This document shows positions 24,247 to 37,109 of a stretch of 64,000 bases of DNA, piece by piece. This DNA is from Candidatus Woesebacteria bacterium RIFCSPHIGHO2_01_FULL_38_10 (GTDB taxonomy: Bacteria > Patescibacteriota > Microgenomatia > UBA8517): the NCBI GenBank assembly GCA_001792215.1, contig MGGC01000033.1, positions 2,527 through 66,526 of the forward strand, written 5' to 3'. The notes under the pieces are model-generated. The model had not been told where the DNA came from. It saw only the letters and a list, made by a program, of their open reading frames with translations, and made no database searches. A program made the translations under genes and the position numbers. The number at the start of each line of letters is the position of its first letter. The stretch's first letter is position 1.

Positions 24247-25119
24247 ATGAAAATGACAAATAAAAATAAGTCTAATTTTCTACCTGTTATCCTTATCCTT
24301 GCCATAGTTGCCATTCTTGCTGTAGTTTTAGCCCCTCGCATGGTTAGTCAATCAAAGATTGCTCAGACCTTGCAATCCAGCGCCAAGGACAAAGAAGTTG
24401 CAGAGCTTCTGGCTACGATGAGCAAGAACCCAAATAAGGACTCACAGGAGTATAAAGAAGCTCGCCAGAAGTTTTGCCTTTTGACAGCCAGACCAGTAAA
24501 AGAGCGAGAAAAGGCAATCGCCAACATTCGTGAGTTTCTGGGTATACCTGACATCCCAGTGGAGTTCCTTTGTAGCAGGTTTGCGGGTAAGCCAGATGAC
24601 AGCGAGACTGATTATAATAACCCAACCAGCGAACACTATGAAGCTGCACGCCACGGTTTTGAAGTCGATCCAAAAACCAACTACCTCATTGGAGTTGGAG
24701 ACGCCGAGCGCAGGACAGGAAGAAAAGAGGACGGCACCCGCTGGTCTGAACCACTGCCAGAGTATGATTACTCAGGTCGTTACAGCACACCAGAGGAAGT
24801 TAGAAAGGTCGCTGAGAAGTTTCTAACGGATCACAAGGACATTTTTGGTATTGATCTTACTAAGATGACCTACAAGTATGAAGGCACAAAGCCAGGCAAC
24901 TTCTTCATGCACTGGGAAGACAAAAGTGTCTCGGTAACCAAAGAGCATGAAGTCTGTGGGGATGTAGATCAGAACCGAGAGGGCGCATACCAAGACGCCA
25001 AAGGAGTATGGTGCATTAAGCAGAAGTCGACGAATTATCAAAGGATCGACATCGCTATCACCAACGGCGGGCAGATCATTATCTATCGCAACAACATCAA
25101 CGATCTGGACAAACTCTAA
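24247..25119 (+). CDS. Hypothetical membrane-anchored or secreted protein. GC-richer than the host genes.
   Basis: 290 aa with an N-terminal hydrophobic segment (FLPVILILAIVAILAVVLAP) and no recognisable domain. Confidence 0.55.
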   Translation: MKMTNKNKSNFLPVILILAIVAILAVVLAPRMVSQSKIAQTLQSSAKDKEVAELLATMSKNPNKDSQEYKEARQKFCLLTARPVKEREKAIANIREFLGIPDIPVEFLCSRFAGKPDDSETDYNNPTSEHYEAARHGFEVDPKTNYLIGVGDAERRTGRKEDGTRWSEPLPEYDYSGRYSTPEEVRKVAEKFLTDHKDIFGIDLTKMTYKYEGTKPGNFFMHWEDKSVSVTKEHEVCGDVDQNREGAYQDAKGVWCIKQKSTNYQRIDIAITNGGQIIIYRNNINDLDKL

Positions 25120-25419: not shown

Positions 25420-28284
25420 TCATATTCTGTATTTTTGTTGCCGTTTCTTGAAGGCTTCCGATCCACCTTCTAACACCTTAACCGCTCTATTCCGAATCTT
25501 AGGTTCTTCTATTGAACCTGAGATATACGAGATTTTTCCGTTGCTATCTCTATTTGCCAAAATAACCTGTTCTGCATCGCTGTTTATAACAACATTGCCG
25601 TTATTGGATACCAAGATAATCTGTCGATACTTTTTAGCTTCTCTTATAGAACCAATAAGCTCGTCCATAATAAATTCGTTATCCAGATGATCATCGTGTG
25701 AGTCGATAATGATAGGTTTGTCTCCTTCAGCTAAATAAATCTTAATAAGAACCGTAGCTTTTTGCCCCAATGAAAGTTTATTAACGCTCGTATTTTTGTA
25801 TTTAACAACGGGGATAACTGTAAGGTAGCTGTCATATAAGAATTTATAGAAATCACCAACACTTATCACACTTGAAGTTTTTATTTTACCTTTCAAGTCA
25901 TTACTCAAGTGCTCAAGCTCATCAACTAAAACATTCACCTTAGTTTCATCGCCAGCTGCAACTGCCTTATAGAATCCTACCAAACCCTTAAACACCCAAG
26001 TATCCCCATCTTCTGGTCTAACCATAACCTTCCTATTGTCGACTACATCCTCTGCATTTTTTAGTAATTGTTTAGAATTAAAATTAACTTCTGCAACAAA
26101 ATCAAGGTCAGAAAGCACCTGTGCCTTGTCTACAGAAAATAACGAGATAATCTCATCGTATTTTTTCTTCAACTCAAGAAATGCAGTAACCATTTGAGTA
26201 AACAGCTCTTTCCTTTCTTTGATCTCAGATGCAAGCTCTTTCTTCTTTTTCTTTAAGTTTTTATTTTCCTCCTCAGCTTTATTTAGAGCAATTTCCGTTT
26301 CCCTCTTTTTATCAAGTAGTGATGTGTGACTTCGTATTCCTGCTTCGAACTGATCAATATCTTTTTGAGCTTTTCCAATGTTCTCAATTGCCTTATTTAT
26401 CTCTTGCTCGATATAATCTAATTTCTCCTGCAATTTGTCTTTATCTGCGTATGCTAAATCAGGGAAGGATTCTGGGACTTTTAACTTCTTAAGCAATTGA
26501 TTGATTGAAGAAATGTAAGAGTTAAATGTTGGAAACTCTTGGTCAATAAAAGCAATCGCCTGTGTTAATTCCTCCTTTAACTTAATGAGCAGGTCTCTCC
26601 TGTTTTTTAAGTTTGCTATGGCTTCTTGCTTTCCTTTTGCGATTTTAACCTTTTTGCTATTCAGACTTTTCTCAAGTTCTGCAATTCTCTGGTTTATGTC
26701 TTTCAATCCTACCTTGAGCTGTTTTTCTTTAACCTTTGCTTTTTCGACAATTTCTGTTTTTGTCGCTTGCTCTGTTGACTCGATTGACTGTGACTTCTGT
26801 AGAATTTTCTGTTTAAGGTCACCAATCTTTGTCTGGATTTTTGAAAATTCGTATTTTTCTACTGAATTTTGTATCTTTGGACTTTGGAAAATTAAGTCAT
26901 TAACATACTCGTCAAGATCCGATTTCTCTCCAATATACTGTTCTAATTCCCCCTGGGCGATATAAGCAATTTGCCCCTCTTCAAAAAACGATAGGTCTGT
27001 AGCTTTTTTTGAAAATGTTGTCTTATCCTTGAAAGTTAACTCAGTTTTTAAGTCAGGGTTCTGATCCGAAATTCTCTTAATAAAAGAGTTCTCGTCGCCA
27101 GAATTAACTCTATCGATGTAACAGTTAGCAATCTGGTCAACAAAGGCTGTCTTACCAGTCCCTTTTCCTCCTGCTACTGCGACTAAGCCTGGATTAAGAT
27201 TTATATCTGTCTTGGCAATAGACAATTCGTCGTTAATTTTCGACTCTGTAATTTTTATCTGGTCGATTGTTAAATTACTTCTGGGTGGTATTGGGCAACC
27301 TGGTTGGATTGAAACTCTATCTTCTGGTTCATATAAAAGCTGTTTTAATCCTTCAAATGTTGGGTCTGCTTCTACCCAACAAAATCTCAAATCACAGGCA
27401 TCAGTCTTTTCACCACACTTATGTGTAGATACACCCCTTTTTGCACACGGGACTCCCACTTCATCAATGCAATGACTGTCTGATCCGTGTATACAAGATT
27501 TCAGAGTCTTAAACTCCTCTTTAAACTTCTTTTCACCTTCTTTATAGGGTTGTTTTCCAAGACACCACTGTATAGTTTTAGGATTAGAGGAAAAAACCAT
27601 ATCCGATTTCTGAAGAAGTCCTTTTCTCATAAGATGATCTTGACCATTCCAGTCAATCAAATTCGACAGTTCTTCGGGAAGAACAAGAAGATATTTTCCC
27701 TTGAAACGGCTATCTCCACTTAATAGCTCTGTTATTTCTTCATGGCTAACAACCGCATTCGATGCACCCAATTCCAGAGGGTTTCTTCCTTTGAAGAGTG
27801 CATGTTGAGATATAAGTTGTTTTCCTAAAACAGTTAAGTTGGATAGTTTTAATTTGCGACTCTCATCCTTGCTCTGGGGGTTACCTTCGTAATAAAAATG
27901 GAGATCATGTAGGAAATGTTCTTCTATATCTTGAGGAGATACTTCATCAGAAAAAATTACATGGTAATTTAGTCTTCGTGGATCAGTTCCGTCTTTTCTG
28001 CTTGAAATGACGCTGTTTAATCGAAACTCAATGTTCGGCAGAACCAACGAGATGTTTTTCAGTCTTCCTGCTTTTCTAAACTCCAGAATCTTCTTATATC
28101 CTTCTATTGAGAAGTAATCCGTTATTCCTACAGCAGCCAGATCAAGCCCCTCAAGTTTTTTAAGAAACTTATTCCAATCTGGCTCACCATTTGCCAGCTT
28201 AGGATATTTATTAGCGAGTATTGAAAGAGGACTGTGAACATGCAAATCCCACTTTCGCCATTCAGAACCTCTTGGATATTCCAT
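25420..28284 (-). CDS. PHP-domain phosphoesterase fused to an ABC/SMC-like ATPase with long coiled-coils, resembling the single-gene Ppl (PHP-like) anti-phage architecture.
   Basis: 954 aa. N-terminal PHP motifs (WDLHVHSP...AAVGITDY...). Walker A VAVAGGKGTGKTAFVDQ. Extensive coiled-coil. C-terminal ABC signature-like LSLGQK followed by Walker B PIIIDSHDDHLD. Confidence 0.7.
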   Translation of the reverse strand: MEYPRGSEWRKWDLHVHSPLSILANKYPKLANGEPDWNKFLKKLEGLDLAAVGITDYFSIEGYKKILEFRKAGRLKNISLVLPNIEFRLNSVISSRKDGTDPRRLNYHVIFSDEVSPQDIEEHFLHDLHFYYEGNPQSKDESRKLKLSNLTVLGKQLISQHALFKGRNPLELGASNAVVSHEEITELLSGDSRFKGKYLLVLPEELSNLIDWNGQDHLMRKGLLQKSDMVFSSNPKTIQWCLGKQPYKEGEKKFKEEFKTLKSCIHGSDSHCIDEVGVPCAKRGVSTHKCGEKTDACDLRFCWVEADPTFEGLKQLLYEPEDRVSIQPGCPIPPRSNLTIDQIKITESKINDELSIAKTDINLNPGLVAVAGGKGTGKTAFVDQIANCYIDRVNSGDENSFIKRISDQNPDLKTELTFKDKTTFSKKATDLSFFEEGQIAYIAQGELEQYIGEKSDLDEYVNDLIFQSPKIQNSVEKYEFSKIQTKIGDLKQKILQKSQSIESTEQATKTEIVEKAKVKEKQLKVGLKDINQRIAELEKSLNSKKVKIAKGKQEAIANLKNRRDLLIKLKEELTQAIAFIDQEFPTFNSYISSINQLLKKLKVPESFPDLAYADKDKLQEKLDYIEQEINKAIENIGKAQKDIDQFEAGIRSHTSLLDKKRETEIALNKAEEENKNLKKKKKELASEIKERKELFTQMVTAFLELKKKYDEIISLFSVDKAQVLSDLDFVAEVNFNSKQLLKNAEDVVDNRKVMVRPEDGDTWVFKGLVGFYKAVAAGDETKVNVLVDELEHLSNDLKGKIKTSSVISVGDFYKFLYDSYLTVIPVVKYKNTSVNKLSLGQKATVLIKIYLAEGDKPIIIDSHDDHLDNEFIMDELIGSIREAKKYRQIILVSNNGNVVINSDAEQVILANRDSNGKISYISGSIEEPKIRNRAVKVLEGGSEAFKKRQQKYRI

Positions 28285-28286
28285 AT

Positions 28287-30608
28287 TTATTTTTTATCAA
28301 TCTTATAAGCGCTGCTGATGATAGCGTCAAAACTGTTAATTCTGCTTACTGCTGTATGGGGCAGGAGTTTATAAATCCACTGCTTGTTGGTTGCTCCAGA
28401 GGCGATTTTACACCATTCTTCAGCTTGTTTTGCCTTCTCCAAGACCTCTGGGTCTTTTTTGTCGAGTTTACTTTTATCTTTAACCTCCACCAAGTAATTA
28501 GCGTCTTTTCTTTCAACAATAAAATCGGGGTTGTAGTTACCGTAAATATACTTAATCGGTAGTTGCCCGTTCCTAAGTCTCAACCAGCTCACTACAGATT
28601 TATCTCTTTCCAGAGAGTCCGCTAACAGTTTCTCCTGGGTTGAATCAAAAACATAGGCTGGGTAAACACTTTTGTCATATCCCTTGATGATGTTGCCTCT
28701 GGATTCTGCTTCGCTCACTTCGTCTTTATCCAATGGCACAGCCGAGACCTTTACGACTTTCAGATAAGGTTCAAACGGCAACTGCTCATCAAGAACTCCA
28801 AACTTGATTCTTGTTTGTTCTTGGAGCTTCTCCTGAAGCTGAGGCAGAATATCATTTAAGATTGTCTGTTCATGCAGTTTAACCAGTTTCGATAGCTCTT
28901 TTCCTGTTACCTGGAGTTGATCAAGGTAGTGTTTTACGATCTTTTGTAAGATTGCCTTGAAAGAGATGTCAAACTCGGACATCTCCAAGATAATCAACCT
29001 AACGATGCGATTAACAGGATTGATTTCTTCTTTGATCTCGACTTCTCCAGCGTCTTCTGTTTGTCTGGAAACAATGTCTGTCTTAACCATTCTTGGCTTA
29101 ATCTTCTTTAATTCCTCCAAACGCAACTTAATCGGGAAGAACTCCAGTTTATTGCTGGAATAAACTTTCGCTTCGACAGCAGGTATCTTGATCCAAAGTT
29201 TTTTATTACCTGTTGGTTTGATCTCAACAGTCTTTAATTCTTCTTTCTTTTCAGCCTTTTTAACCCCAATCCCCTCAGCCACTTCATGGGCAACCGCTAT
29301 CACTCTGGCAAAGTTGTCATGGGAGATAATGTCGAGCGAGTCAAGTTCCTCAACGCCTGAAAGCTCGCCAAACGGTAGCCTAAGCCCTCTGCCGATAGTT
29401 TGCTCGATCAAAGTCTTACTGATTGAAGCCCTGAAGGGGATAATGGTGTAGACATTTTTGACATCCCAGCCTTCTTTGAGCTTGTCAACATGAACAACAA
29501 TCTCGTTTTTGTTAACTGGATAAGGTTCTTCCAAACGGAGAAGCTGATTGATTGAATCTACCTCGCTCTCGCTGGTTACCAATAGAGTTTTGTCCTTGTA
29601 ATAGCCATCAAAGAAACTGTCGCTTTCGATTAGAGCTTTAACATCTTTGGCGTGCTGAATGTTCTTGGTCGTTAGGAGAGTAACTGGTAAAACAAACGGC
29701 AATTTATTGTTTTTGCAGTATGCCTCGATAAGTGCTTTCTTCTCTCGGTGTCTCCTGATACCATCCTCAAGTTTCACTAACTCAAGGTCACCTTTGTAGG
29801 TGTAGTCATCACTTCTGGCTATAACATACGGAATCTTGATATAACCACCCTTAGCGCCATTGCCGTTGTGTAAGCTCGCCAAAGCCTTCTTAGAATCGTT
29901 TATGGCGTCTCCAAGGGTGTAAGAATAAACCACATTGTCGCTAATGGGTGTTGCCGTAAATTCCAGTCCCAACTCTGGTTTGAGATGGTTGATCGCTTTG
30001 ATCGACTTTACTCCCCGATACCTGTGACTCTCGTCCATTAAAATAACCAGATCCTTTTGCTGGAGAAGCTCGGCAAAGCTCGACCCCAGTGTTTCTTGAT
30101 AGCGGTGGAATCTAAACTCGACATCGGTTCTTTCGTTGAAAATCTTCTGGATATTAAAAACATAAATGTTAACCGCATCAAAAAGCTGATTGCCAAAGTT
30201 AGCATAGGTGTAATTTTCTCCTGTAATCAAATTAAACATTGGGAAATCAGTCAAACCATCCAGGACATATTTTTTGCTTGAAGGGGTAAAGTTATCGATA
30301 GTTTTGGTATAAATGGTTTCTCCTGGAGTTAGAATGAAAAAGTCTTTTAGCCCCTTCGTGTAGTAAAGATAAGCGATCATGGCTGCCATCAGTCTTGTTT
30401 TCCCCACACCTGTTGCCAGAGCAAAAGTAAAGGAAGGAAACTCTGTATCAAACTTCACATTTCCCACCAACCTCGCCTCAATATCTTCCAATTTGTCCCT
30501 GTCTAACTTAACCCCAGAAAGGATTGCGTCTAATTTGATCAATGAAAGCTCTTGTGGCTTTCTCAGGCTTAATTCTTTGGTTAATTTTTCTGTTATGTTC
30601 ATGCTCAT
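28287..30608 (-). CDS. res: Type III restriction enzyme, Res subunit (SF2 helicase-like ATPase plus C-terminal PD-ExK endonuclease).
   Basis: 773 aa. Walker A ALATGVGKTRLMAAM, DEAH-like MDESHRY, C-terminal D...LVEVKDK nuclease motif. Translationally coupled to the Mod gene. Confidence 0.85.
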   Translation of the reverse strand: MSMNITEKLTKELSLRKPQELSLIKLDAILSGVKLDRDKLEDIEARLVGNVKFDTEFPSFTFALATGVGKTRLMAAMIAYLYYTKGLKDFFILTPGETIYTKTIDNFTPSSKKYVLDGLTDFPMFNLITGENYTYANFGNQLFDAVNIYVFNIQKIFNERTDVEFRFHRYQETLGSSFAELLQQKDLVILMDESHRYRGVKSIKAINHLKPELGLEFTATPISDNVVYSYTLGDAINDSKKALASLHNGNGAKGGYIKIPYVIARSDDYTYKGDLELVKLEDGIRRHREKKALIEAYCKNNKLPFVLPVTLLTTKNIQHAKDVKALIESDSFFDGYYKDKTLLVTSESEVDSINQLLRLEEPYPVNKNEIVVHVDKLKEGWDVKNVYTIIPFRASISKTLIEQTIGRGLRLPFGELSGVEELDSLDIISHDNFARVIAVAHEVAEGIGVKKAEKKEELKTVEIKPTGNKKLWIKIPAVEAKVYSSNKLEFFPIKLRLEELKKIKPRMVKTDIVSRQTEDAGEVEIKEEINPVNRIVRLIILEMSEFDISFKAILQKIVKHYLDQLQVTGKELSKLVKLHEQTILNDILPQLQEKLQEQTRIKFGVLDEQLPFEPYLKVVKVSAVPLDKDEVSEAESRGNIIKGYDKSVYPAYVFDSTQEKLLADSLERDKSVVSWLRLRNGQLPIKYIYGNYNPDFIVERKDANYLVEVKDKSKLDKKDPEVLEKAKQAEEWCKIASGATNKQWIYKLLPHTAVSRINSFDAIISSAYKIDKK

Positions 30609-32272
30609 ACTTTGAATTTCTTGAGTAAAACATCAGGAATTTTCCTGATTTCTACATTTTCTGGTAATTTAATTTTACTCGATATGGTTTTGGCATAAAC
30701 GATCAGATAATCGGCTGCATCGCCAACTTCTCGCAAGATAGCACTTACATAATCTTGGTTGAGATATTGCTCGGTTACATGAGCGATAGTCCTTCCTGAA
30801 ACGCCGTGTAGGGCATTATTTGGATTAAGGAGTTTGAATCCTTCGACCTTCAAAACTGCCCGAATAAGAGTGCCGTTATATACTTTTGGATTTAGAACTG
30901 TCAATCTCAAGTCGTCATCTGCTACAAAAAGACTGTCCCCCAATTCAAAATACTTAAATCCACTCCCGCCCCTCCAATTTATTTCCTTACTGATTCCAGT
31001 CTGATCCTTACCCTCGACAACCTCTTTTAATCGCTTTAAGCAGTGCGTTTTAACTTGATCGCTAAACTCAACCATGATCCACTTTCTTCCCATCTTGTGT
31101 GCAACTGCCCCTGTAGTTCCCGAACCCGCAAAACTGTCAAGAATCCAATCGCTCTCTTTTGATCCTATCTCTAAGATTCTCTTTATCAACTTTTCAGGTT
31201 TCTTGCCCTTGGGAAATTCCACATTCCCTTCTTTTGCTATTCCTTGCCAACCGATGTCGTCCCAGAAGTTCGTTAGAGGTTCAACAATGCCCTTCTCGCC
31301 ATTTACTGTCCTAACTTTATCCTCTAAAAAGAGGATTCTATTTCCTTTATAGAAAAACATATCACTAAAATCTTCTCGTTTAAGTAAGTAGACTTTTTCA
31401 CCATCACTTTTTGATTTATCGATAAGTTCTCTTGCTGCCTGACTCACTCCCTTATAGTTTGGTAGTGCAAAACGGATCACCCCTTCTGGATTACCCACCG
31501 CAAACTTAACAACCTCTTTTTCAAATACTTTACTGGACAGTTTTTTCCTTGCCTCTGATGCAGAAGAGTATCCCAGCTCAGTTGCAACTTTATCCGCTAA
31601 ATTGATAAATCGCCATTTTTGATAATCCTCTGAGTAGTTCTCGATGAACTTGCTGTATTGCCTATCATATTTTTCTCTTAACACATGTTGTTGTTTGTAA
31701 CGCCATTCAGTTTTGTCTTTGCAGTAAACGATGAGATATTCGGTCACATTTACAGGAGCTGGGTTTATTGCCTTATGTCCTGTAGCAGCACTCCTTTTTA
31801 TGCTTATATTAACTACACGATTCTTACGACCAAATATCTCATCAAGGAGAACGCTCAAATAGGCAACCTCCGTATCATCAATTTCAACAAAAATTACTCC
31901 ATCTTTTTTTAATAAGTCGTGAAGAAGTTTTAGTCTGTCCCTCATCATCGTGAGCCAGATAGAATGCTCTAAGCCATCATCGTAGTATTCAAACGCAGAA
32001 CCAGTATTGAATGGAGGATCAATATAAATCAGCTTAATTTTGTTTCTAAAATCTTGCAGCAATGCCTTAAGCGCTAATAGATTATCGCCCTTTATGAGCA
32101 TGTTTTCAGCATCTCTATCACCGTAAGCTGCCTTTTCGAGAAATATACGAGGTTCAGATACTCTGGGGTCTTTTTTGTCTACCCAAAGATATTTTTTCTC
32201 TTTGAGATCATAGTAAAGACTTTTGTCTTTGTGATACCAGGTTAATTCTAATTTTTTATCGTTTTTAGTCAT
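30605..32272 (-). CDS. mod: Type III restriction-modification Mod subunit (N6-adenine DNA methyltransferase, beta-class motif order).
   Basis: 555 aa. Motif IV IYIDPPFNTG precedes motif I DSFAGSGTTGAVA. Overlaps the Res start by 4 nt. Confidence 0.85.
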   Translation of the reverse strand: MTKNDKKLELTWYHKDKSLYYDLKEKKYLWVDKKDPRVSEPRIFLEKAAYGDRDAENMLIKGDNLLALKALLQDFRNKIKLIYIDPPFNTGSAFEYYDDGLEHSIWLTMMRDRLKLLHDLLKKDGVIFVEIDDTEVAYLSVLLDEIFGRKNRVVNISIKRSAATGHKAINPAPVNVTEYLIVYCKDKTEWRYKQQHVLREKYDRQYSKFIENYSEDYQKWRFINLADKVATELGYSSASEARKKLSSKVFEKEVVKFAVGNPEGVIRFALPNYKGVSQAARELIDKSKSDGEKVYLLKREDFSDMFFYKGNRILFLEDKVRTVNGEKGIVEPLTNFWDDIGWQGIAKEGNVEFPKGKKPEKLIKRILEIGSKESDWILDSFAGSGTTGAVAHKMGRKWIMVEFSDQVKTHCLKRLKEVVEGKDQTGISKEINWRGGSGFKYFELGDSLFVADDDLRLTVLNPKVYNGTLIRAVLKVEGFKLLNPNNALHGVSGRTIAHVTEQYLNQDYVSAILREVGDAADYLIVYAKTISSKIKLPENVEIRKIPDVLLKKFKV

Positions 32273-32274
32273 AT

Positions 32275-32937
32275 TTATAAATTCTCTGCTAAGAATCTCT
32301 GCACGCCTTCAAGCATAGCCTTAACATCTTCTGTTTTGTAATCCTCAAACTTACCATGATCAGCGCTGTCTCTTATTGCCTTCCACGCCTGAATTTGTTT
32401 TTGAAGCAAGCGACTATAAACTTCTTTATCTGCGAGCTTTGTATTGAGTGATCCTATGTCATCGCCCGATTTGACATCGACAGTATGTTTCTGTGCAATT
32501 TGTCTCAGTCCATTTTCTAATACTGCTCCCACCAAAGAAGCAGCAGAGTCTTTGTAGCTGTTATCCAAGAGATGCTGAGCCATTTCGATAAAATCTGTGA
32601 AGATTTCAGCGCTTACTAAGTTTCTTACTCTTGTTAAATAACCAAGTTCCAAATCTTCTTTTAATGCCGTGAGGATGCCAATACCGTGGTCTACATCGCT
32701 TGGGTGGGCTGTTTTTACCCCGTCAACAAAGTTTTTGTAGTAAGGGCTGTCTTCTCCACAAACCATAGATATAAAGTTTTGTGAGTTATTCTTCCATTCG
32801 TGAAATAGAGGGCTATTGACCGTGGAGGGTGCAATAACATGCTCCGAACTGTTATTTCTTTTTGTTGCTGCGACTTTTTGCCCTTTTTCGAGCAGTTGTC
32901 CAACCCGCTCAATTAGCTTATTTGTTGTTGTGTTCAT
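32275..32937 (-). CDS. Hypothetical protein with an Rx4H motif in a predicted helical C-terminal region, a possible HEPN-like (DUF4145-type) partner of the R-M genes.
   Basis: 220 aa. AIRDSADHGKF matches the HEPN Rx4-6H signature. Sits between the HTH gene and Mod. Call made by motif inspection only. Confidence 0.4.
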   Translation of the reverse strand: MNTTTNKLIERVGQLLEKGQKVAATKRNNSSEHVIAPSTVNSPLFHEWKNNSQNFISMVCGEDSPYYKNFVDGVKTAHPSDVDHGIGILTALKEDLELGYLTRVRNLVSAEIFTDFIEMAQHLLDNSYKDSAASLVGAVLENGLRQIAQKHTVDVKSGDDIGSLNTKLADKEVYSRLLQKQIQAWKAIRDSADHGKFEDYKTEDVKAMLEGVQRFLAENL

Positions 32938-33125
32938 ATTTTTATTTTCATTAGCTTTTCTAAATCTCCAGGTCTGTATCTTCGATCTCCTCGCTTGTTG
33001 AGTCTTATAGCCTTCAGTTTACCGCTTTTATCCCATCGTCTAAGTGTCTCCACATGCACATTTAACACCTCAGCAGCTTGTTTAATGGTTAGTAGTTTTG
33101 GTAACTCGTCTTTATTCTTCGGCAT
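32934..33125 (-). CDS. Excisionase-family / MerR-like helix-turn-helix DNA-binding protein (copy 1), first gene of the defence operon.
   Basis: 63 aa. LTIKQAAEVLNVHVETLRRWDKSGKLKAIR is the classic Xis/AlpA-type HTH. Overlaps the next gene by 4 nt. Confidence 0.75.
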   Translation of the reverse strand: MPKNKDELPKLLTIKQAAEVLNVHVETLRRWDKSGKLKAIRLNKRGDRRYRPGDLEKLMKIKI

Positions 33126-33173
33126 AACTCAACTTAATTATACAAAAATTAAAGGAAAAAGGGTATACTAACC
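33126..33173 (-). promoter_or_regulatory. Putative promoter for HTH copy 1 (TATAAT-like -10 element); conserved with the region upstream of HTH copy 2.
   Basis: Sense-strand sequence upstream of the ATG reads ...TTTTTGTATAATTAAGTTGAGTT-ATG. The same GTATAATTA(A/T)GTTGAG core occurs upstream of the 36221 start codon. Confidence 0.35.
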
Positions 33174-34097
33174 TTGATGCGTAAAGTCGTCCCTCCGAAA
33201 CTCGTATGGAAGTATATCGGTGATGAGAGTTCTGAAAAGCGGAAGGAGTCGGAGGAGAGGGTAAGACAGGTTTATGATCGTATTTTTACGGCAGCAAGGG
33301 AGAATATGCGGCAGCGGAAGCATCAAGAAATTGGTAAAATTAAAGGGTCTAATATGAAGATGAAAAATAAGTTTGCTGTAGTTACGGGTTCATCTACTGG
33401 CATCGGTCAGGCTATTGCCATTGAGTTAGCCAAAAAAGGTGCTTTTATTGCTCTGGCTGGTCGCACGCAGGACAAGCTACTAAAAACAAAGAGTTTAATT
33501 ACTGAGAATGGTGGACAGGCAGAAGTATTTTTAGGGGATTTTACCAAGTTGGATTCGCTGGAAGCTCTTATTGCCTTAATTAAGCAAAAAACAGATAAAG
33601 TAGATGTCTTGGTGAATGTGGCTGGTATTTGGCATGGCGAGGATGAGGTTTATGCAGGTAAGGATTTTGAGTCTTTTCCTAAGCAAGTTATTCTTGACAC
33701 TTACGCAGTTGGCTTAACTGCGCCAACACTTCTTGCTCATGCTTTTATCCCCCTTATGCCAAAAGGAGGAAGGATTATCAATATCTCTGGAACATTTGAA
33801 AACGGAGCAAAAGGCTGGTTACCGTATTTTGTCTCCAAGAAGGGTATCGAAGATTTAACCATTGGACTTGCCGAGGAATTGAAGGATAAAGGAATACTGG
33901 TAAACGCCATTTCTCCTTCTGACACGGCTACTGATGCTTATAAAAAGTATTTTCCTCAGTATATTGGAGAAGTAATTGATCCGAAGGAGATTGGTAAATA
34001 TGCGGTATATTTGTGTTCAGAAGAAGCAAACGATATTACTGGCAAGGTTTTTGTCCTGAAAAAAGGCAAAGAACCCTATGAAGGTTATCACACTTAA
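33174..34097 (+). CDS. Short-chain dehydrogenase/reductase (SDR).
   Basis: Rossmann motif AVVTGSSTGIGQAIA and a catalytic YxxxK region (YFVSKKGIEDL). The true start is probably the internal Met near 33355 (MKMKNKFAVVTG); the listed N-terminal extension is doubtful. Confidence 0.8.
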   Translation: MMRKVVPPKLVWKYIGDESSEKRKESEERVRQVYDRIFTAARENMRQRKHQEIGKIKGSNMKMKNKFAVVTGSSTGIGQAIAIELAKKGAFIALAGRTQDKLLKTKSLITENGGQAEVFLGDFTKLDSLEALIALIKQKTDKVDVLVNVAGIWHGEDEVYAGKDFESFPKQVILDTYAVGLTAPTLLAHAFIPLMPKGGRIINISGTFENGAKGWLPYFVSKKGIEDLTIGLAEELKDKGILVNAISPSDTATDAYKKYFPQYIGEVIDPKEIGKYAVYLCSEEANDITGKVFVLKKGKEPYEGYHT

Positions 34098-34695
34098 TAT
34101 GAGCAAGGTTAAAGTTTTAATTGAAGGTTATGCTAAGAAAACCAAAGAAGGATGGTTAGCCTCATCTTCTACTACTCTTATTGAAGACGGTGGGAAAAAG
34201 ATAATTGTCGATCCTGGGATCAACAGGGAGTTACTGTTTCGAAAACTTAAAGATCAAGGCTTGACTCCTAACGGCATCGATATTGTCTTTATGACCCATT
34301 ACCACCCAGACCACATGTTTTTGACTTCAGTTTTTGAGAAAGCCATGGTAGTTGATGGCGATACCGTTTATGAAAAAGATAATGAAACTGGGTATGAGGG
34401 TAGAGTTCCAGGAACGAGCCTGGAGGTAATCCTTACTCCTGGACACGCTCATGAACACGCTGCCTTACTTGCTACAACCGAGAGGGGGAAAATCGTTGTT
34501 GCTGCGGATGTTTTTTGGTGGACAGACGAGGAAAAGCAACAAACGGATAATGTTAAGGCTCTGGTTAATAAGGAAGATCCTTTTACTAAGGATCGGGAAG
34601 CCTTGAAAGCAAGTAGAAGGAAAGTTTTAGAGATAGCTGATTGGATTATCCCTGGACATGGTAAAATGTTTAGGAATCCTAAAAAGAAAGGATAA
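34078..34695 (+). CDS. Metallo-beta-lactamase-fold hydrolase.
   Basis: 205 aa with the HxHxDH motif (MTHYHPDHMF) and later His/Asp ligands (PGHAHEHAA). Confidence 0.75.
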   Translation: MKVITLNMSKVKVLIEGYAKKTKEGWLASSSTTLIEDGGKKIIVDPGINRELLFRKLKDQGLTPNGIDIVFMTHYHPDHMFLTSVFEKAMVVDGDTVYEKDNETGYEGRVPGTSLEVILTPGHAHEHAALLATTERGKIVVAADVFWWTDEEKQQTDNVKALVNKEDPFTKDREALKASRRKVLEIADWIIPGHGKMFRNPKKKG

Positions 34696-34697
34696 AA

Positions 34698-35183
34698 ATG
34701 AAAAAGTTAATTCCACCAGATTTCCAAATACCAGAAGTTTTAGAAGCAGACAGGTTTAGATTGAGAATGCTGAAAGTTACAGATGTGGTTAAAGATTATG
34801 ATGCTGTAATGACCAGCATTGATCATCTCCAGGGCATATTCGGTGTTCGCTCTAAATGGCCTTCAAAAGATTTGACATTTGAGCAAGACTTGATTGATTT
34901 AGGCTGGCATCATAAAGAGTTCCAAACACGCTCATCCTTCGCTTATACGGTTATGAACCCAGGTGAAAGTCAATGTTTGGGCTGTGTCTATATTTTTCCT
35001 CCGACAAAATCTGGCTTTGATGCTGAAGTTTATATGTGGGTTAGAAAAAGTGCATACGATGAGGGCTTAGATCCCATTTTATACGAAACAGTTAAAAACT
35101 GGATTGCAGAAAAGTGGCCTTTTAAGAAAGTTGCCTACCCTGGAAGAGAGATCGATTGGGAAACATGGAAGTCTTTGGAATAG
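34698..35183 (+). CDS. Hypothetical protein, possibly a GNAT-like acyltransferase.
   Basis: 161 aa. Weak resemblance to the GNAT core (YTVMNPGESQCLGCVYIFP). Low-certainty call. Confidence 0.35.
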   Translation: MKKLIPPDFQIPEVLEADRFRLRMLKVTDVVKDYDAVMTSIDHLQGIFGVRSKWPSKDLTFEQDLIDLGWHHKEFQTRSSFAYTVMNPGESQCLGCVYIFPPTKSGFDAEVYMWVRKSAYDEGLDPILYETVKNWIAEKWPFKKVAYPGREIDWETWKSLE

Positions 35184-35563
35184 CGGGCAAGGATTAAGGT
35201 GTTGCTACAAAAAGTTTTAGGTTACGGCTAAAAGCTGCTGGGTAGATTTAAGTGTTGTTTCTGGAAATTCCAGGATGTCTAACCAGTTTGCTGACCTAAA
35301 ATCGTTCCATTTGTCCAGCAAGACTGGACGCTAAGCGACCGTAAGCTCTCAAATGGGTCGATTTGGCTTGCTAAATGTCCACTTTCTTATTAGGAGTCTC
35401 GGACCGTACCCTTGTTATTCAGCGGCCTTTTTTACTCTCGAAGATACGACCTTACGGTCGTGAAGATAGAGCTGTTCGCTGAAAAGCTGAATTAGTTGTC
35501 GTTTTCTCTCAATATCTCCATTACTTAAGATGTTCCTTGCGTAGTCCCTTACGTCCATTGTTT

Positions 35564-36031
35564 TCATCTGGGTTGATATCTTGCCTTAGGATCATCACCG
35601 TCAAACCTATTACTTGCTTCAAGTTTACAGGCAGACGCCAGGATTTCACTTGCGGTCGAAGTGCTGGTGTCAGCGGGAAGAATACAATGGAGTTGAATAC
35701 CTGTTTTACCCTCATATGTTGTGAGTTCAAAACCTGGGAAAATTGTTAATTCATAACCTTCTTGTTCCAGTTTTTTTGCTTCTGTGCAAAGGCTTTCCAG
35801 CACAGAGTCTTTGGGGTCATTAACAAAGTTGTGATCTGTAAGCGCAATAGCATCAAGTTTCTGCCTCCTGCAAAAAGCAACAAATTCTTTCGCAAAATCT
35901 TCTTTTGTATAGTCTTTACTTATTTTCTTTCCCTTCCAACGAGCATCAAGGCAAGTATGACAATGTAAGTCGCACTTAAAGAATTTAGCCTCTTTAAGCT
36001 GATATTTATCTGTGTTTGTATAGTCAGTCAT
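35564..36031 (-). pseudogene. Truncated PHP-domain gene, paralogous to the N-terminus of the 954-aa PHP-ATPase; the ATPase part is missing.
   Basis: 155 aa. KCDLHCHTCLD...AIALTDHNF...ELTIFPGFEL...GIQLHCILPADTS parallels WDLHVHSP...AVGITDY...ISLVLPNIEF...LNYHVIFSDEVS of the 25420..28284 protein. It is followed by about 380 bp with no ORF. Confidence 0.55.
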
Positions 36032-36221
36032 ATTTATTTTTCTTTAATAGATTCTCCAAATCTCTTGGGTCATAACGCCTATCGCCACGCTCGTTGACCC
36101 GAATGGCTTTCAGTTTTCCGCTTTTACCCCACCGTCTCAATGTCTCCACATGGACATTCAGCACTTCAGCTGCTTGGCGGATAGTTAACAGTTTTGGTAA
36201 AGTCGTCTTATTCTTCGGCAT
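36024..36221 (-). CDS. Excisionase-family / MerR-like HTH protein (copy 2), a near-identical paralog of 32934..33125.
   Basis: 65 aa. MPKNKTTLPKLLTIRQAAEVLNVHVETLRRWGKSGKLKAIRVNERGDRRY versus MPKNKDELPKLLTIKQAAEVLNVHVETLRRWDKSGKLKAIRLNKRGDRRY. The upstream promoter-like sequence is also conserved. Confidence 0.75.
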   Translation of the reverse strand: MPKNKTTLPKLLTIRQAAEVLNVHVETLRRWGKSGKLKAIRVNERGDRRYDPRDLENLLKKNKYD

Positions 36222-36286
36222 ACCTCAACATAATTATACAATTTTTGACCAAAAAGAGTTATACTTGTTTTGGTAAAATAAAAAGA
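36222..36286 (-). promoter_or_regulatory. Putative promoter for HTH copy 2, conserved with 33126..33173.
   Basis: Sense strand reads ...TTGGTCAAAAATTGTATAATTATGTTGAGGT-ATG. The TATAAT box sits at the same distance from the start codon as in copy 1. Confidence 0.35.
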
Positions 36287-36675
36287 ATGAAAACTGTTGT
36301 AATTTGCGGTAGCAGAAGGTTTAAAAAAGAAATAAGAGAGTTTGGAAGCAAACTGATTAAAGCAGGAATTGTTGTCTTTTCGCCCTATCTCCATGAAGGT
36401 AAAGACGAGTGGGATAAACTATCACTCCAATATAAAAAGTTCGTTGCTTTGGGTCTTACTCACAACCATTTTTATAAAATCAGGATGGCTGATGTTGTGT
36501 TTGTCTACAACAAAGATGGTTATGCTGGTGTAAGCACTGCCTTGAGCTTGGGTATGCTGTTGCTCTTGGGAAGCCAATTTACGCCCTATCGGATAAAGAT
36601 GAAGAACTTTGCAGACTAACTCTGTTCCGTGAGGTAGTTAAAACACCAAAAGAACTTATAAATAAACTAAAATGA
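36287..36675 (+). pseudogene. Nucleoside 2-deoxyribosyltransferase-like (SLOG/NDT-fold) protein with an apparent -1 frameshift near 36545.
   Basis: Starts MKTVVICGSRRFKKEIREF... At 36544 the reading frame that continues the family-like sequence (ELGYAVALGKPIYALSDKDEELCRLTLFREVVKTPKELINKLK*) is the -1 frame. In that frame the stop overlaps the next gene's ATG (ATGA at 36672). Confidence 0.5.
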
Positions 36676-37109
36676 AAATCGTAATTTGTGGCTCAATGGC
36701 TTTTGCACAGGATATGCTTAATGCTAAATGTCTTCTGGAGGAGAAAGGCTATCGAGTTGTTCTCCCCGAAGGCACAGATGAATACTGCAAAGGAAAATTA
36801 AAGAAACTTGCAAATGGATGGGGAACGGTTGAGGGAGCAAAGAGGAAGATCGATAACGATCTTATAAAAAAGCATTATAACGAAATAAAAGACGGTGATG
36901 CCATTTTAGTTATAAACAAGAGTAAAAACGGAATAAAAAATTACATCGGTGGTAATAGCTTTCTCGAAATGGGCTTTGCCTACATTCTGAATAAGAAGAT
37001 TTACACGCTAAATGATCTTCCAGACAGTCTTCCTATCTTTTATCAGGAACTTATTGCTATGCAACCTATATCACTTAGAGGAGATTTAAATAAAATTAAA
37101 AATGGGTAA
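36672..37109 (+). CDS. Nucleoside 2-deoxyribosyltransferase-like (SLOG/NDT-fold) protein, paralog of the upstream gene.
   Basis: 145 aa. Starts MKIVICGSMAFAQDM. The Rossmann-like layout is typical of the NDT/LOG superfamily. Confidence 0.6.
   Translation: MKIVICGSMAFAQDMLNAKCLLEEKGYRVVLPEGTDEYCKGKLKKLANGWGTVEGAKRKIDNDLIKKHYNEIKDGDAILVINKSKNGIKNYIGGNSFLEMGFAYILNKKIYTLNDLPDSLPIFYQELIAMQPISLRGDLNKIKNG

Follow-up and report, generated by a model that had tools for sequence, protein, structure and literature searches.

A stretch of 64,000 nucleotides from Candidatus Woesebacteria bacterium RIFCSPHIGHO2_01_FULL_38_10 (GenBank assembly GCA_001792215.1, contig MGGC01000033.1, positions 2,527 to 66,526), which we call the window and by whose positions all features are given below, contains two small minus-strand genes for helix-turn-helix (HTH) proteins: namely, HTH1 (32934-33125, 63 aa), which is the first gene of a defence-type operon (operon 1) and is predicted to be its autoregulator, and HTH2 (36024-36221, 65 aa), which is intact and appears to be an orphan regulator. 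A preliminary description, made from the letters of the window without database searches, had noted the two genes together with a shared upstream sequence containing TATAAT, and both open reading frames (ORFs) and the upstream sequence were found exactly as described. The HTH1 protein is registered at NCBI as a hypothetical protein of the same organism, and identical contigs of the region come from metagenomes of the Rifle aquifer (groundwater). The subject of this analysis is the unit that each HTH gene forms with its promoter, and the genes that follow it.

In cassette 1, which is intact, HTH1 was indeed found to lead an operon of HEPN, restriction-modification (R-M) and PHP-ATPase genes, all on the minus strand and joined by 4-nt overlaps or 2-nt gaps. 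The first of these genes, the start of which overlaps the stop codon of HTH1 by 4 nt, encodes a HEPN-like protein of 220 aa (32275-32937) with RDSADH as the Rx4H motif and a Pfam HEPN match (3.6e-4) just under the curated cut-off. It is followed by Mod (30605-32272, 555 aa; Pfam N6_N4_Mtase 6e-41, PADLOC MTase_III 8e-129) and Res (28287-30608, 773 aa), the latter with a helicase and a C-terminal endonuclease (Pfam ResIII 5e-21 and RE_endonuc 3e-7, PADLOC REase_III 1.4e-87); as judged from these matches, the two genes in one operon are a type III R-M system. The last gene of the operon encodes a Ppl-like protein of 954 aa (25420-28284), which has the PHP-type motif WDLHVHS at its N-terminus, SMC_N/LmuB/JetC-like matches in its SMC/ABC-like ATPase and a PADLOC Ppl match (1.9e-24) in two stretches, the best of which, at the C-terminal end, aligns residues 834-950 with positions 774-890 of the 894 in the profile.

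In cassette 2, HTH2 overlaps by 8 nt a 155-aa ORF (35564-36031, minus), the 5' part of which (35603-36031, about 143 codons) corresponds to the N-terminus of a Ppl-like PHP-ATPase with the motifs CDLHCHT and TDHNF. This ORF matches positions 5-118 of the 894 in the PADLOC Ppl profile (E 9e-9). In an exhaustive phmmer search it aligned with PHP-ATPases of 900-1000 aa in their N-terminal 120-150 residues only (281 matches, best 2e-17, 33-45% identity); the matches cover residues of about 10-125 of the relatives, and homology in the alignment reaches about residue 143. A word-indexed homologue search with the same ORF returned only the ORF itself. The preliminary description had taken this fragment to be a truncated PHP gene paralogous to the 954-aa protein, and the truncation holds while the kinship is remote: BLASTP detected no similarity between the two, on which ground close paralogy was rejected, profile-to-profile comparison with hhalign related them at 91.5% (E 8.6e-7) with 21% identity in the PHP region, and the nearest full-length relatives of the fragment belong to a different branch of Ppl, with the motifs FKCDLHMHT...TDHNF. 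Furthermore, tblastn with 80 full-length Ppl relatives revealed no C-terminal Ppl remnant in 35100-35700 (best E 0.03), so that a merely frameshifted Ppl gene was also rejected. The 155-aa ORF is, by this comparison with its relatives, a stump and not a functional member of Ppl.

Directly adjoining the Ppl stump, we identified the decayed 3' end of a large serine recombinase gene (35220-35598, minus), which is interrupted by one 1-nt frameshift and three in-frame stops. This remnant spans a 50-aa ORF (35415-35567) and about 230 bp of ORF-free DNA, and the last 12 codons of the 155-aa ORF are the remnant read out of frame. By tblastn, it is 78-81% identical over 54 aa to P0273, P0276 and P0277 and 35% identical to P0284 over 128 aa spanning the stops, and its last 33 codons (35223-35321, minus; LLDKWNDFRSANWLDILEFPETTLKSTQQLLAV) are 100% identical to P0280. 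The assignment to a large serine recombinase follows from P0277, which has a weak Zn_ribbon_recom match and is directly preceded in its own contig by a Resolvase-domain ORF. The same tail (35223-35321) is 75-93% identical to several other database ORFs, and all relatives found are short (67-176 aa), which suggests that the recombinase tail is often left behind or split, possibly through an overlap with an attachment site. As the remnant adjoins the Ppl stump, a rearrangement thus joined codon 143 or so of a Ppl-like gene to a recombinase tail, which then decayed. A deletion had already been suspected from about 380 bp of ORF-free DNA at this place, and the idea of a rearrangement or deletion stands, although the DNA is not anonymous but is this recombinase 3' end; an Rfam search of 32800-36500 gave one sub-threshold chance match only and no RNA element in the "ORF-free" DNA. 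Cassette 2 is in the same state in all contigs of the Rifle population. A population variant, L007, has a 125-bp deletion in the 161-aa plus-strand gene (window 34975-35100) beside the recombinase remnant; it was considered as a different context for the stump and rejected, being the same locus with that deletion.

The two HTH proteins are identical at 50 of 60 positions (83%; BLASTP E 1e-35), which makes the earlier wording "near-identical" an overstatement. A nucleotide alignment of the copies, which had been proposed as a check, shows 77%, 92% and 50% identity at the first, second and third codon positions, respectively (60 aligned codons), and the same codon is used at only 25 of the 50 shared residues; the proportion of synonymous differences (pS) is 0.74, i.e., saturated, with a nonsynonymous distance (dN) of 0.15 and a ratio to the synonymous distance (dN/dS) of about 0.05. 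Because the synonymous sites are saturated and 83% is the level found between genomes throughout the family, the copies are ancient rather than the product of a recent duplication, and "duplicated" is a misleading term; from these comparisons, the window is considered to hold two independently derived cassettes about 3 kb apart in a Woesebacteria genome. Upstream of the ATG, in contrast, positions -20 to -1 are identical at 18 of 20 sites (3 of 10 at -30 to -21), while similarity is at background beyond -50 and 3' of the stop codon. Given third codon positions with only 50% identity and flanks at background, the upstream identity reflects constraint and is not a residue of common descent. All 27 family-invariant residues are retained in HTH2; its predicted recognition helix differs from that of HTH1 at D32G alone, and the first helix has the further change K15R. 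HTH2 probably still recognises the operator of cassette 1 and would act on both promoters.

The conserved upstream region consists of three boxes of GTATA type at a fixed distance from the ATG, which form the promoter and predicted operator of cassette 1 (33126-33168, minus) and of cassette 2 (36222-36264, minus). In cassette 1 the boxes are GTATACC at -43 (box 1, 33162-33168), GTATAAT at -18 with TATAAT inside (box 2, 33137-33143) and GTTGAGT at -8 (box 3, 33127-33133); their counterparts in cassette 2 are GTATAAC (36258-36264), GTATAAT (36233-36239) and GTTGAGG (36223-36229). The motif TTGTATAATTA-N-GTTGAG-N-TATG has 2 matches in the 64 kb against 0.01 expected, and the 23-nt pattern TTGTATAATTANGTTGAGNTATG, with up to three mismatches allowed, was found only at 33123-33145 and 36219-36241 (0.01 expected from 100 shuffles, whole window). 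Twenty-two promoters from other genomes, aligned on the ATG without gaps, have GTATAcC at -43, GTATA(A/C)T at -18, in which TATAAT or TATACT is included, and GTTGAGg at -8; with 9 further promoters carrying the same boxes at the same positions, the total comes to 31 without a single indel. In 40 other loci of about 12 kb each, the three-box motif occurs only before the HTH gene or before an S26-HTH operon (described below). Box 3 is GTATAGG or GTATAAG in two loci (L031 and L074), and distant relatives with a 292-aa fusion protein have two or three GTATAAG repeats before the ATG at exactly 10-bp spacing; boxes 2 and 3 were therefore recognised as a tandem direct repeat with one-turn spacing, as would be expected for a protein like BldC of Streptomyces. 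The TATAAT ends 11 nt before the ATG, and the transcript is therefore predicted to begin 3-7 nt before the start codon. In box 3, GAGG ends 1-2 nt from the ATG, which is too close for a Shine-Dalgarno sequence, and the -35 position is occupied by box 1.

Divergent from HTH2 are two tandem small genes on the plus strand (36194-36619 and 36672-37109), which look like tandem paralogs with products starting MK(T/I)V(V)ICGS and have no Pfam match. The likely ATG of the first is about 66 nt from that of HTH2, and the three boxes hence occupy the entire divergent intergenic region.

The HTH protein is a MerR-type winged HTH protein similar to BldC and mad1 and has no dimerisation domain. In Pfam, HTH1 matched HTH_17 (3.7e-12, residues 11-59), MerR_1 (7.8e-12) and also MerR, i.e., only HTH_17/MerR families, with no match to WYL or to the Xre-type HTH_3. 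The mad1 model of PADLOC (PDLC04133) matched the two HTH proteins at 8.4e-14 and 1.3e-12. A profile of 25 family members searched against the PDB gave BldC-DNA complexes as the best matches (6amk, 4.8e-7; 6ama, 1.3e-5), followed by Xis of mycobacteriophage Pukovnik (4j2n, 2.5e-4) and the N-terminal domains of classical MerR regulators. The AlphaFold (AF2) model of HTH1, with a predicted local distance difference test score (pLDDT) of 71, is a winged HTH composed of a strand, helices 14-21 and 25-34, the wing and helix 52-61; in Foldseek it superposes over its full length on 6amk and 6ama (target-normalised TM score 0.78-0.84, rmsd 1.3-1.6, 40-42% identity) and also on RacA and Xis, and on longer MerR proteins in their DNA-binding domain only. 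HTH1 is thus a single winged HTH domain, in which no coiled coil, dimerisation or effector domain was detected.

A word-indexed search gave 665 relatives, the best 120 clusters of which are 76-100% identical, and every one of these with a named source belongs to Patescibacteria (Woese-, Beckwith- and Pacebacteria, and Patescibacteria group); identity across many Patescibacteria is at least 73-94%. A scan of one genome per species yielded 166 relatives, and the family is largely restricted to Patescibacteria, while Chloroflexota have weaker relatives. Only one partial relative was found among 2.9 million viral contigs, and because of this near-absence a phage origin of the family was rejected. 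Distant members occur as N-terminal HTH fusions, the partners of which include a likely C5 cytosine methyltransferase with the motif GFPCQDFS (L040:3277-4548), a 230-aa unassigned domain in 292-aa ORFs (L041, L042, L044, L060 and L069), a 365-aa domain in a 428-aa protein before Mod-Res (L031:3653-4939) and giant repeat-rich ORFs of >2000 aa with a predicted transmembrane segment after the HTH (L043, L046 and L047). HTH1 also aligned in PADLOC with residues 1-45 of a model for a type II methyltransferase. In the genome of L014, furthermore, a second HTH copy (L074:6001-6191) is a pseudogene with an in-frame stop after codon 24 and then a frameshift, while its boxes are recognisable; more than one head in a genome, and heads in decay, are therefore not peculiar to the genome of the window.

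What follows the HTH gene in related genomes had been set beforehand as a test of the proposal that a modular head is reused for different defence payloads. In 30 close relatives from different Patescibacteria genomes and two from metagenomes (their loci bear L-numbers here), the cargos were of defence type or unassigned, with no recognisable housekeeping gene among them, and at least 10 different defence-type cargos were found in these genomes behind the same HTH and upstream boxes. HEPN, Mod and Res as in the window recur in L011 and L012, and a second type III-like pair, Res860-Mod, occurs with or without the same HEPN gene in L013, L016, L017, L019, L022, L023, L024, L028 and L098. Ppl directly follows the HTH gene in L015, L021, L034 and L036, with a type II R-M pair thereafter in the last two; in L021 (85% identity) and in L034 and L036 (75%), these are orthologues of the 954-aa protein. 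Mod-Res is combined with an AbiU2-type HEPN (L025 and L038), with DUF4365 (L037), with a Ppl-like gene (L039) or with an HTH fusion (L031). The remaining cargos with an assignment are type I R-M (L032), a PARIS-like AriAB (L083, E 2e-61), TPR-GreAB-C-PIN (L020), DUF4297 (L033), PDC-S54 (L035, E 1e-161) and SLFN_AlbA_2 (L094); several cargos have no Pfam or PADLOC match. Among 150 ORFs flanking the 30 loci, no integrase or recombinase family was represented by two or more members, the flanks being ordinary metabolic genes.

The type III genes themselves show further variation. Between the window and L011 and L012, Res is 92% and HEPN 82-91% identical, and Mod (L011:1859-3526 and L012:6854-8557) only 56%. 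Such a pattern would result from an exchange of the target-recognition part of Mod, by which it would gain a different specificity. A variable further large gene, moreover, regularly comes after the HTH-led Mod-Res: Ppl in the window, a Ppl-like gene in L039 (10131-12164), a DUF4365/Aga-type nuclease in L037 (11023-12159), an AAA_13 ATPase with PD-(D/E)XK in L098 (13442-16051) and genes without an assigned family in L011 (5857-7185) and L012 (10926-12188). Type III R-M and a variable second effector may therefore form a composite system.

Where the cargos change, the boundaries of homology fall in or at the HTH gene. The complete Woesebacteria genome L024 and L037 are 99.9% identical over 1.9 kb including an S26 gene and HTH codons 1-24, after which the identity falls abruptly to 64% inside the HTH gene and to nothing in the cargo (Res860-258aa-Mod in L024 versus 279aa-Mod555-Res772-DUF4365 in L037). 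L036 and L039 share only the promoter-S26-HTH block (90%), which ends 6 nt after the HTH stop codon and is followed by Ppl in the former and by Mod-Res-Ppl-like in the latter. In the pair L019 and L022 (6185-6847), the HEPN gene, flanked by the HTH stop and the Res start, is an exact indel. HEPN-like orthologues (71-91% identity to window 32275-32937) stand behind the HTH gene in L011, L012, L022, L028 and L098 (L098:8189-8863), where the same gene is combined with two unrelated type III-like R-M pairs. The three genome pairs are independent, and together with the overall pattern they agree on breakpoints at the HTH gene. The preliminary description had regarded the module as a plausible substrate for homologous recombination; boundaries elsewhere do support recombination at this gene, while the pair in the window, because its longest exact common run is 15 nt, is a poor substrate.

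Two kinds of recurrent neighbourhood were recognised. One is marked by the "c4" gene (24247-25119, plus), which is convergent with operon 1 and represents a conserved 3' flank; it encodes an N-terminally membrane-anchored protein of 290 aa with no Pfam or PADLOC match. Orthologues of c4 (29-70% identity) lie convergent and immediately 3' of the cargo in L015, L020, L029, L033 and L094, and c4 thus adjoins HTH-led cassettes with six different cargos in six genomes. HTH identity is 73-82% in the genome pairs where that of c4, which diverges at a normal rate, is 29-70%. The c4 neighbourhood is accordingly a recurrent chromosomal site with a variable payload and a conserved head. The other is found in nine genomes (L019, L022, L024, L027, L028, L034, L036, L037 and L039), in which a gene for a 602-aa membrane protein (L019:4173-5999) lies between the three-box promoter and the HTH gene. 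Four transmembrane segments are predicted in this protein, which carries a signal-peptidase-I domain (S26) and whose C-terminal domain (about 250 aa) belongs to no family; an HTH fusion or a LexA-like repressor was considered and rejected, as the translation is that of a membrane signal-peptidase-I-like protein. The S26 gene has the same three-box promoter at the same distance from its ATG, and its stop codon is 1-3 nt from the HTH start. The promoter-S26-HTH block is 90% identical between genomes with different flanks and cargos.

Small autoregulatory proteins at the start of R-M operons are known as controller (C) proteins, the operators of which overlap their own promoter with a short or no mRNA leader; these are Xre-type (HTH_3) dimers binding inverted-repeat C-boxes and are known for type II systems. 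The HTH gene likewise lies upstream of R-M genes, and its own promoter has repeats which may be operators but are direct instead of inverted like C-boxes. Where systems have operators in common, cross-talk would be expected as with C proteins. The HTH family differs in its MerR/HTH_17 fold and in its cargos, which include type III and type I R-M as well as non-R-M systems. BldC of Streptomyces (6AMK and 6AMA), a protein without a dimerisation domain, forms cooperative head-to-tail multimers on tandem direct repeats (PMC5859096). Like BldC, the HTH protein is a single MerR-type winged HTH of about 65 aa, and its promoters have direct GTATA-type repeats at 10-bp spacing; BldC, however, regulates development pleiotropically through many targets on the chromosome, and its repeats are of AATT type, whereas the HTH family is tied to the start of its own operon before defence genes, with GTATA(A/C)T as the predicted boxes. 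Another similar protein is mad1 of the defence system MADS, which likewise is a small HTH protein at the head of a defence operon with a methyltransferase and is regarded as an accessory "widespread regulator" (PADLOC PDLC04133; bioRxiv 10.1101/2023.03.30.534895). By the rule that mad6, mad7 and mad8 are mandatory (bioRxiv 10.1101/2023.03.30.534895), MADS is not present in operon 1: no protein of the operon matched mad6 or mad7, and mad8 gave only a weak match (E 1.3e-3) on the Ppl-like ATPase. The cargo here is type III R-M with HEPN and Ppl, and elsewhere many other systems.

BrxR/CapW proteins, in turn, are ligand-sensing wHTH-WYL-WCX dimers of about 300 aa found mostly in Proteobacteria (PMC9122601); the HTH family is like them in that one regulator family heads many defence systems or islands and serves as a marker for defence loci, and is unlike them in having no sensor (WYL) domain and in its occurrence mainly in Patescibacteria. 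The 79-aa repressor RptR, encoded where a type I R-M/DarTG island begins, binds three repeats in its own promoter and is co-conserved with these sites across genomes (PMC12255303), but its fold (a bZIP-like helix pair) is unrelated, its sites are 6-bp palindromes in 9-bp repeats, and it belongs to Gammaproteobacteria and essentially to type I R-M only. By analogy, C proteins, BrxR/CapW and RptR would be functional parallels of the HTH protein, and none of them is a homologue. As for the payloads, Ppl has been described as a single-gene defence with a PHP exonuclease and an NTPase (PMC12904381). The PADLOC model of Ppl is matched by the 954-aa protein over the full length and by the 155-aa stump at the N-terminus. 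Behind the HTH gene of L015, L021, L034 and L036, Ppl stands alone, while the intact Ppl-like gene of the window closes a type III R-M operon.

On the whole, we consider it likely that each HTH copy is the conserved head of a defence-gene cassette, in which an autoregulated controller with its promoter is combined with exchangeable payloads. The head would be composed of the compact three-box promoter/operator and the gene for the 60-65-aa winged HTH protein, translationally coupled to the cargo. Transcription would start a few bases downstream of the TATAAT in box 2 and produce a nearly leaderless operon mRNA. Like BldC, the HTH protein would bind the direct repeats as a head-to-tail multimer, with boxes 2 and 3, 10 bp apart, covering the -10 element and the start codon and box 1 lying at the -35 position. 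Such feedback may repress or biphasically control the operon, so that potentially toxic cargo (the type III restriction enzyme, HEPN and the Ppl nuclease) would be restrained and, after transfer, expressed in a timed manner. Since the head is conserved while the cargos differ, Patescibacteria would exchange the cassettes among themselves, one junction lying within the HTH gene or at its border, and this would occur at recurrent chromosomal sites beside the c4 gene or behind the S26 peptidase gene. Cassette 2 would have lost all but about 143 Ppl codons in the rearrangement that fused the gene to the serine recombinase 3' end, with the orphan regulator and its promoter remaining.

Other explanations were weighed against this one. 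A recent tandem duplication within the genome, after which copy 2 would be a decaying duplicate of the HTH gene and the PHP end of the 954-aa gene, could account for two copies 3 kb apart on the same strand, both followed by PHP-type genes; it is nonetheless hardly credible, given the saturated pS, the 25 shared codons among 50 shared residues, the low dN/dS, a protein identity no higher than between genomes and a stump which shows no BLASTP similarity to the 954-aa protein and belongs to another Ppl branch. That the shared upstream sequence is simply a generic strong promoter and ribosome-binding region of these organisms, as its perfect TATAAT and the GAGG-like element beside the ATG might indicate, is most improbable in view of its rarity in the window, its restriction to HTH or S26-HTH operons in 40 other loci, the invariant box positions in 31 promoters and a GAGG too close to the ATG.

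The name "Xis-like" in the preliminary description raises the idea that the cassettes are the cargo of an integrative mobile element and that the HTH protein serves this element as excisionase (recombination directionality factor). HTH_17 is indeed the excisionase family and Pukovnik Xis is among the PDB matches, a serine recombinase remnant adjoins cassette 2, and a full serine recombinase lies about 5.6 kb from the relative in L097. The fold family is therefore correctly named, but with no accompanying integrase an excisionase role is very unlikely: the flanking ORFs of the 30 loci hold no recurrent integrase or recombinase family, tblastn found no resolvase or integrase elsewhere in the window apart from the decayed fragment, the HTH gene sits 5' in a defence operon to which it is translationally coupled behind a conserved promoter, and the viral contigs are essentially devoid of it. 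Somewhat less remote, yet still quite unlikely, is a role of the HTH protein as a working part of defence, e.g., as a sensor bound to DNA or as an antitoxin-like protein that neutralises the cargo, either instead of transcriptional control or in addition to it. Its identity stays at 73% or more where that of the neighbouring gene drops to 30-36%, it is tightly coupled to the cargo, and relatives are fused to other domains (the 428-aa protein of L031, the predicted cytosine methyltransferase of L040 and the 292-aa proteins), but specific interaction of one 63-aa domain with over 10 unrelated cargos is improbable, the conserved cognate boxes in its own promoter point to autoregulation, and mad1 is dispensable for MADS defence.

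The interpretation of each HTH copy as a regulatory head of exchangeable defence cassettes also has several points to its disadvantage. Five of the 30 cargos (L018, L026, L027, L029 and L030), which are large or small proteins without a family, have no recognisable function. With the S26 gene preceding it in nine genomes, the HTH gene is not always the first gene, and the module may therefore regulate more than defence. For want of a -35-like hexamer beside the TATAAT, the sites were missed by a simple scan for the sigma-70 consensus; the distance of 25 bp between boxes 1 and 2, moreover, is not a multiple of the helical turn. The breakpoints come from metagenome assemblies, in which a chimeric join at a conserved repeat is possible for any single pair. 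Finally, deletion of mad1 had little effect on MADS defence (bioRxiv 10.1101/2023.03.30.534895), which would, by analogy, be compatible with a regulatory accessory role.

A more far-reaching version of the cassette-head interpretation, which we put forward only tentatively and regard as unlikely, is that the HTH gene with its operator is the docking end for the exchange of defence cassettes by homologous recombination in Patescibacteria, i.e., a functional counterpart of the integron platform without an integrase. Crossovers in the ultra-conserved HTH core, as between L024 and L037, and in a conserved flank (c4 or the S26 peptidase gene) would then swap payloads at fixed sites, and orphan heads such as copy 2 would persist by acting in trans, silencing incoming cassettes with the same operator until these are established, or as landing pads.

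As regards the surroundings of the cassettes, three plus-strand genes between them (33174-35183) encode a short-chain dehydrogenase (adh_short), a metallo-beta-lactamase-fold hydrolase (Lactamase_B) and the 161-aa protein; these are not parts of the module. Relatives of the dehydrogenase and of the hydrolase also flank HTH genes in L026 and L018. The neighbours of 141, 145 and 161 aa have no Pfam or PADLOC match.

In conclusion, while the kind of element is known, the family with its predicted operator, and the part it would play as an exchange junction in Patescibacteria, seem to be undescribed; our literature search found no description of the family, or of a regulator heading defence operons, in Patescibacteria/Candidate Phyla Radiation. 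The family provides a pair of a predicted regulator and a sequence-defined promoter/operator for organisms that cannot be cultured. It can also be used as a bait for new defence systems of Patescibacteria, where the cargos without a known family include proteins of 1134 aa, 929 aa and 495 aa and a 443-aa partner of type III R-M. The related genomes, furthermore, offer direct examples of the exchange of defence payloads at fixed sites, with the junction inside the regulator gene.

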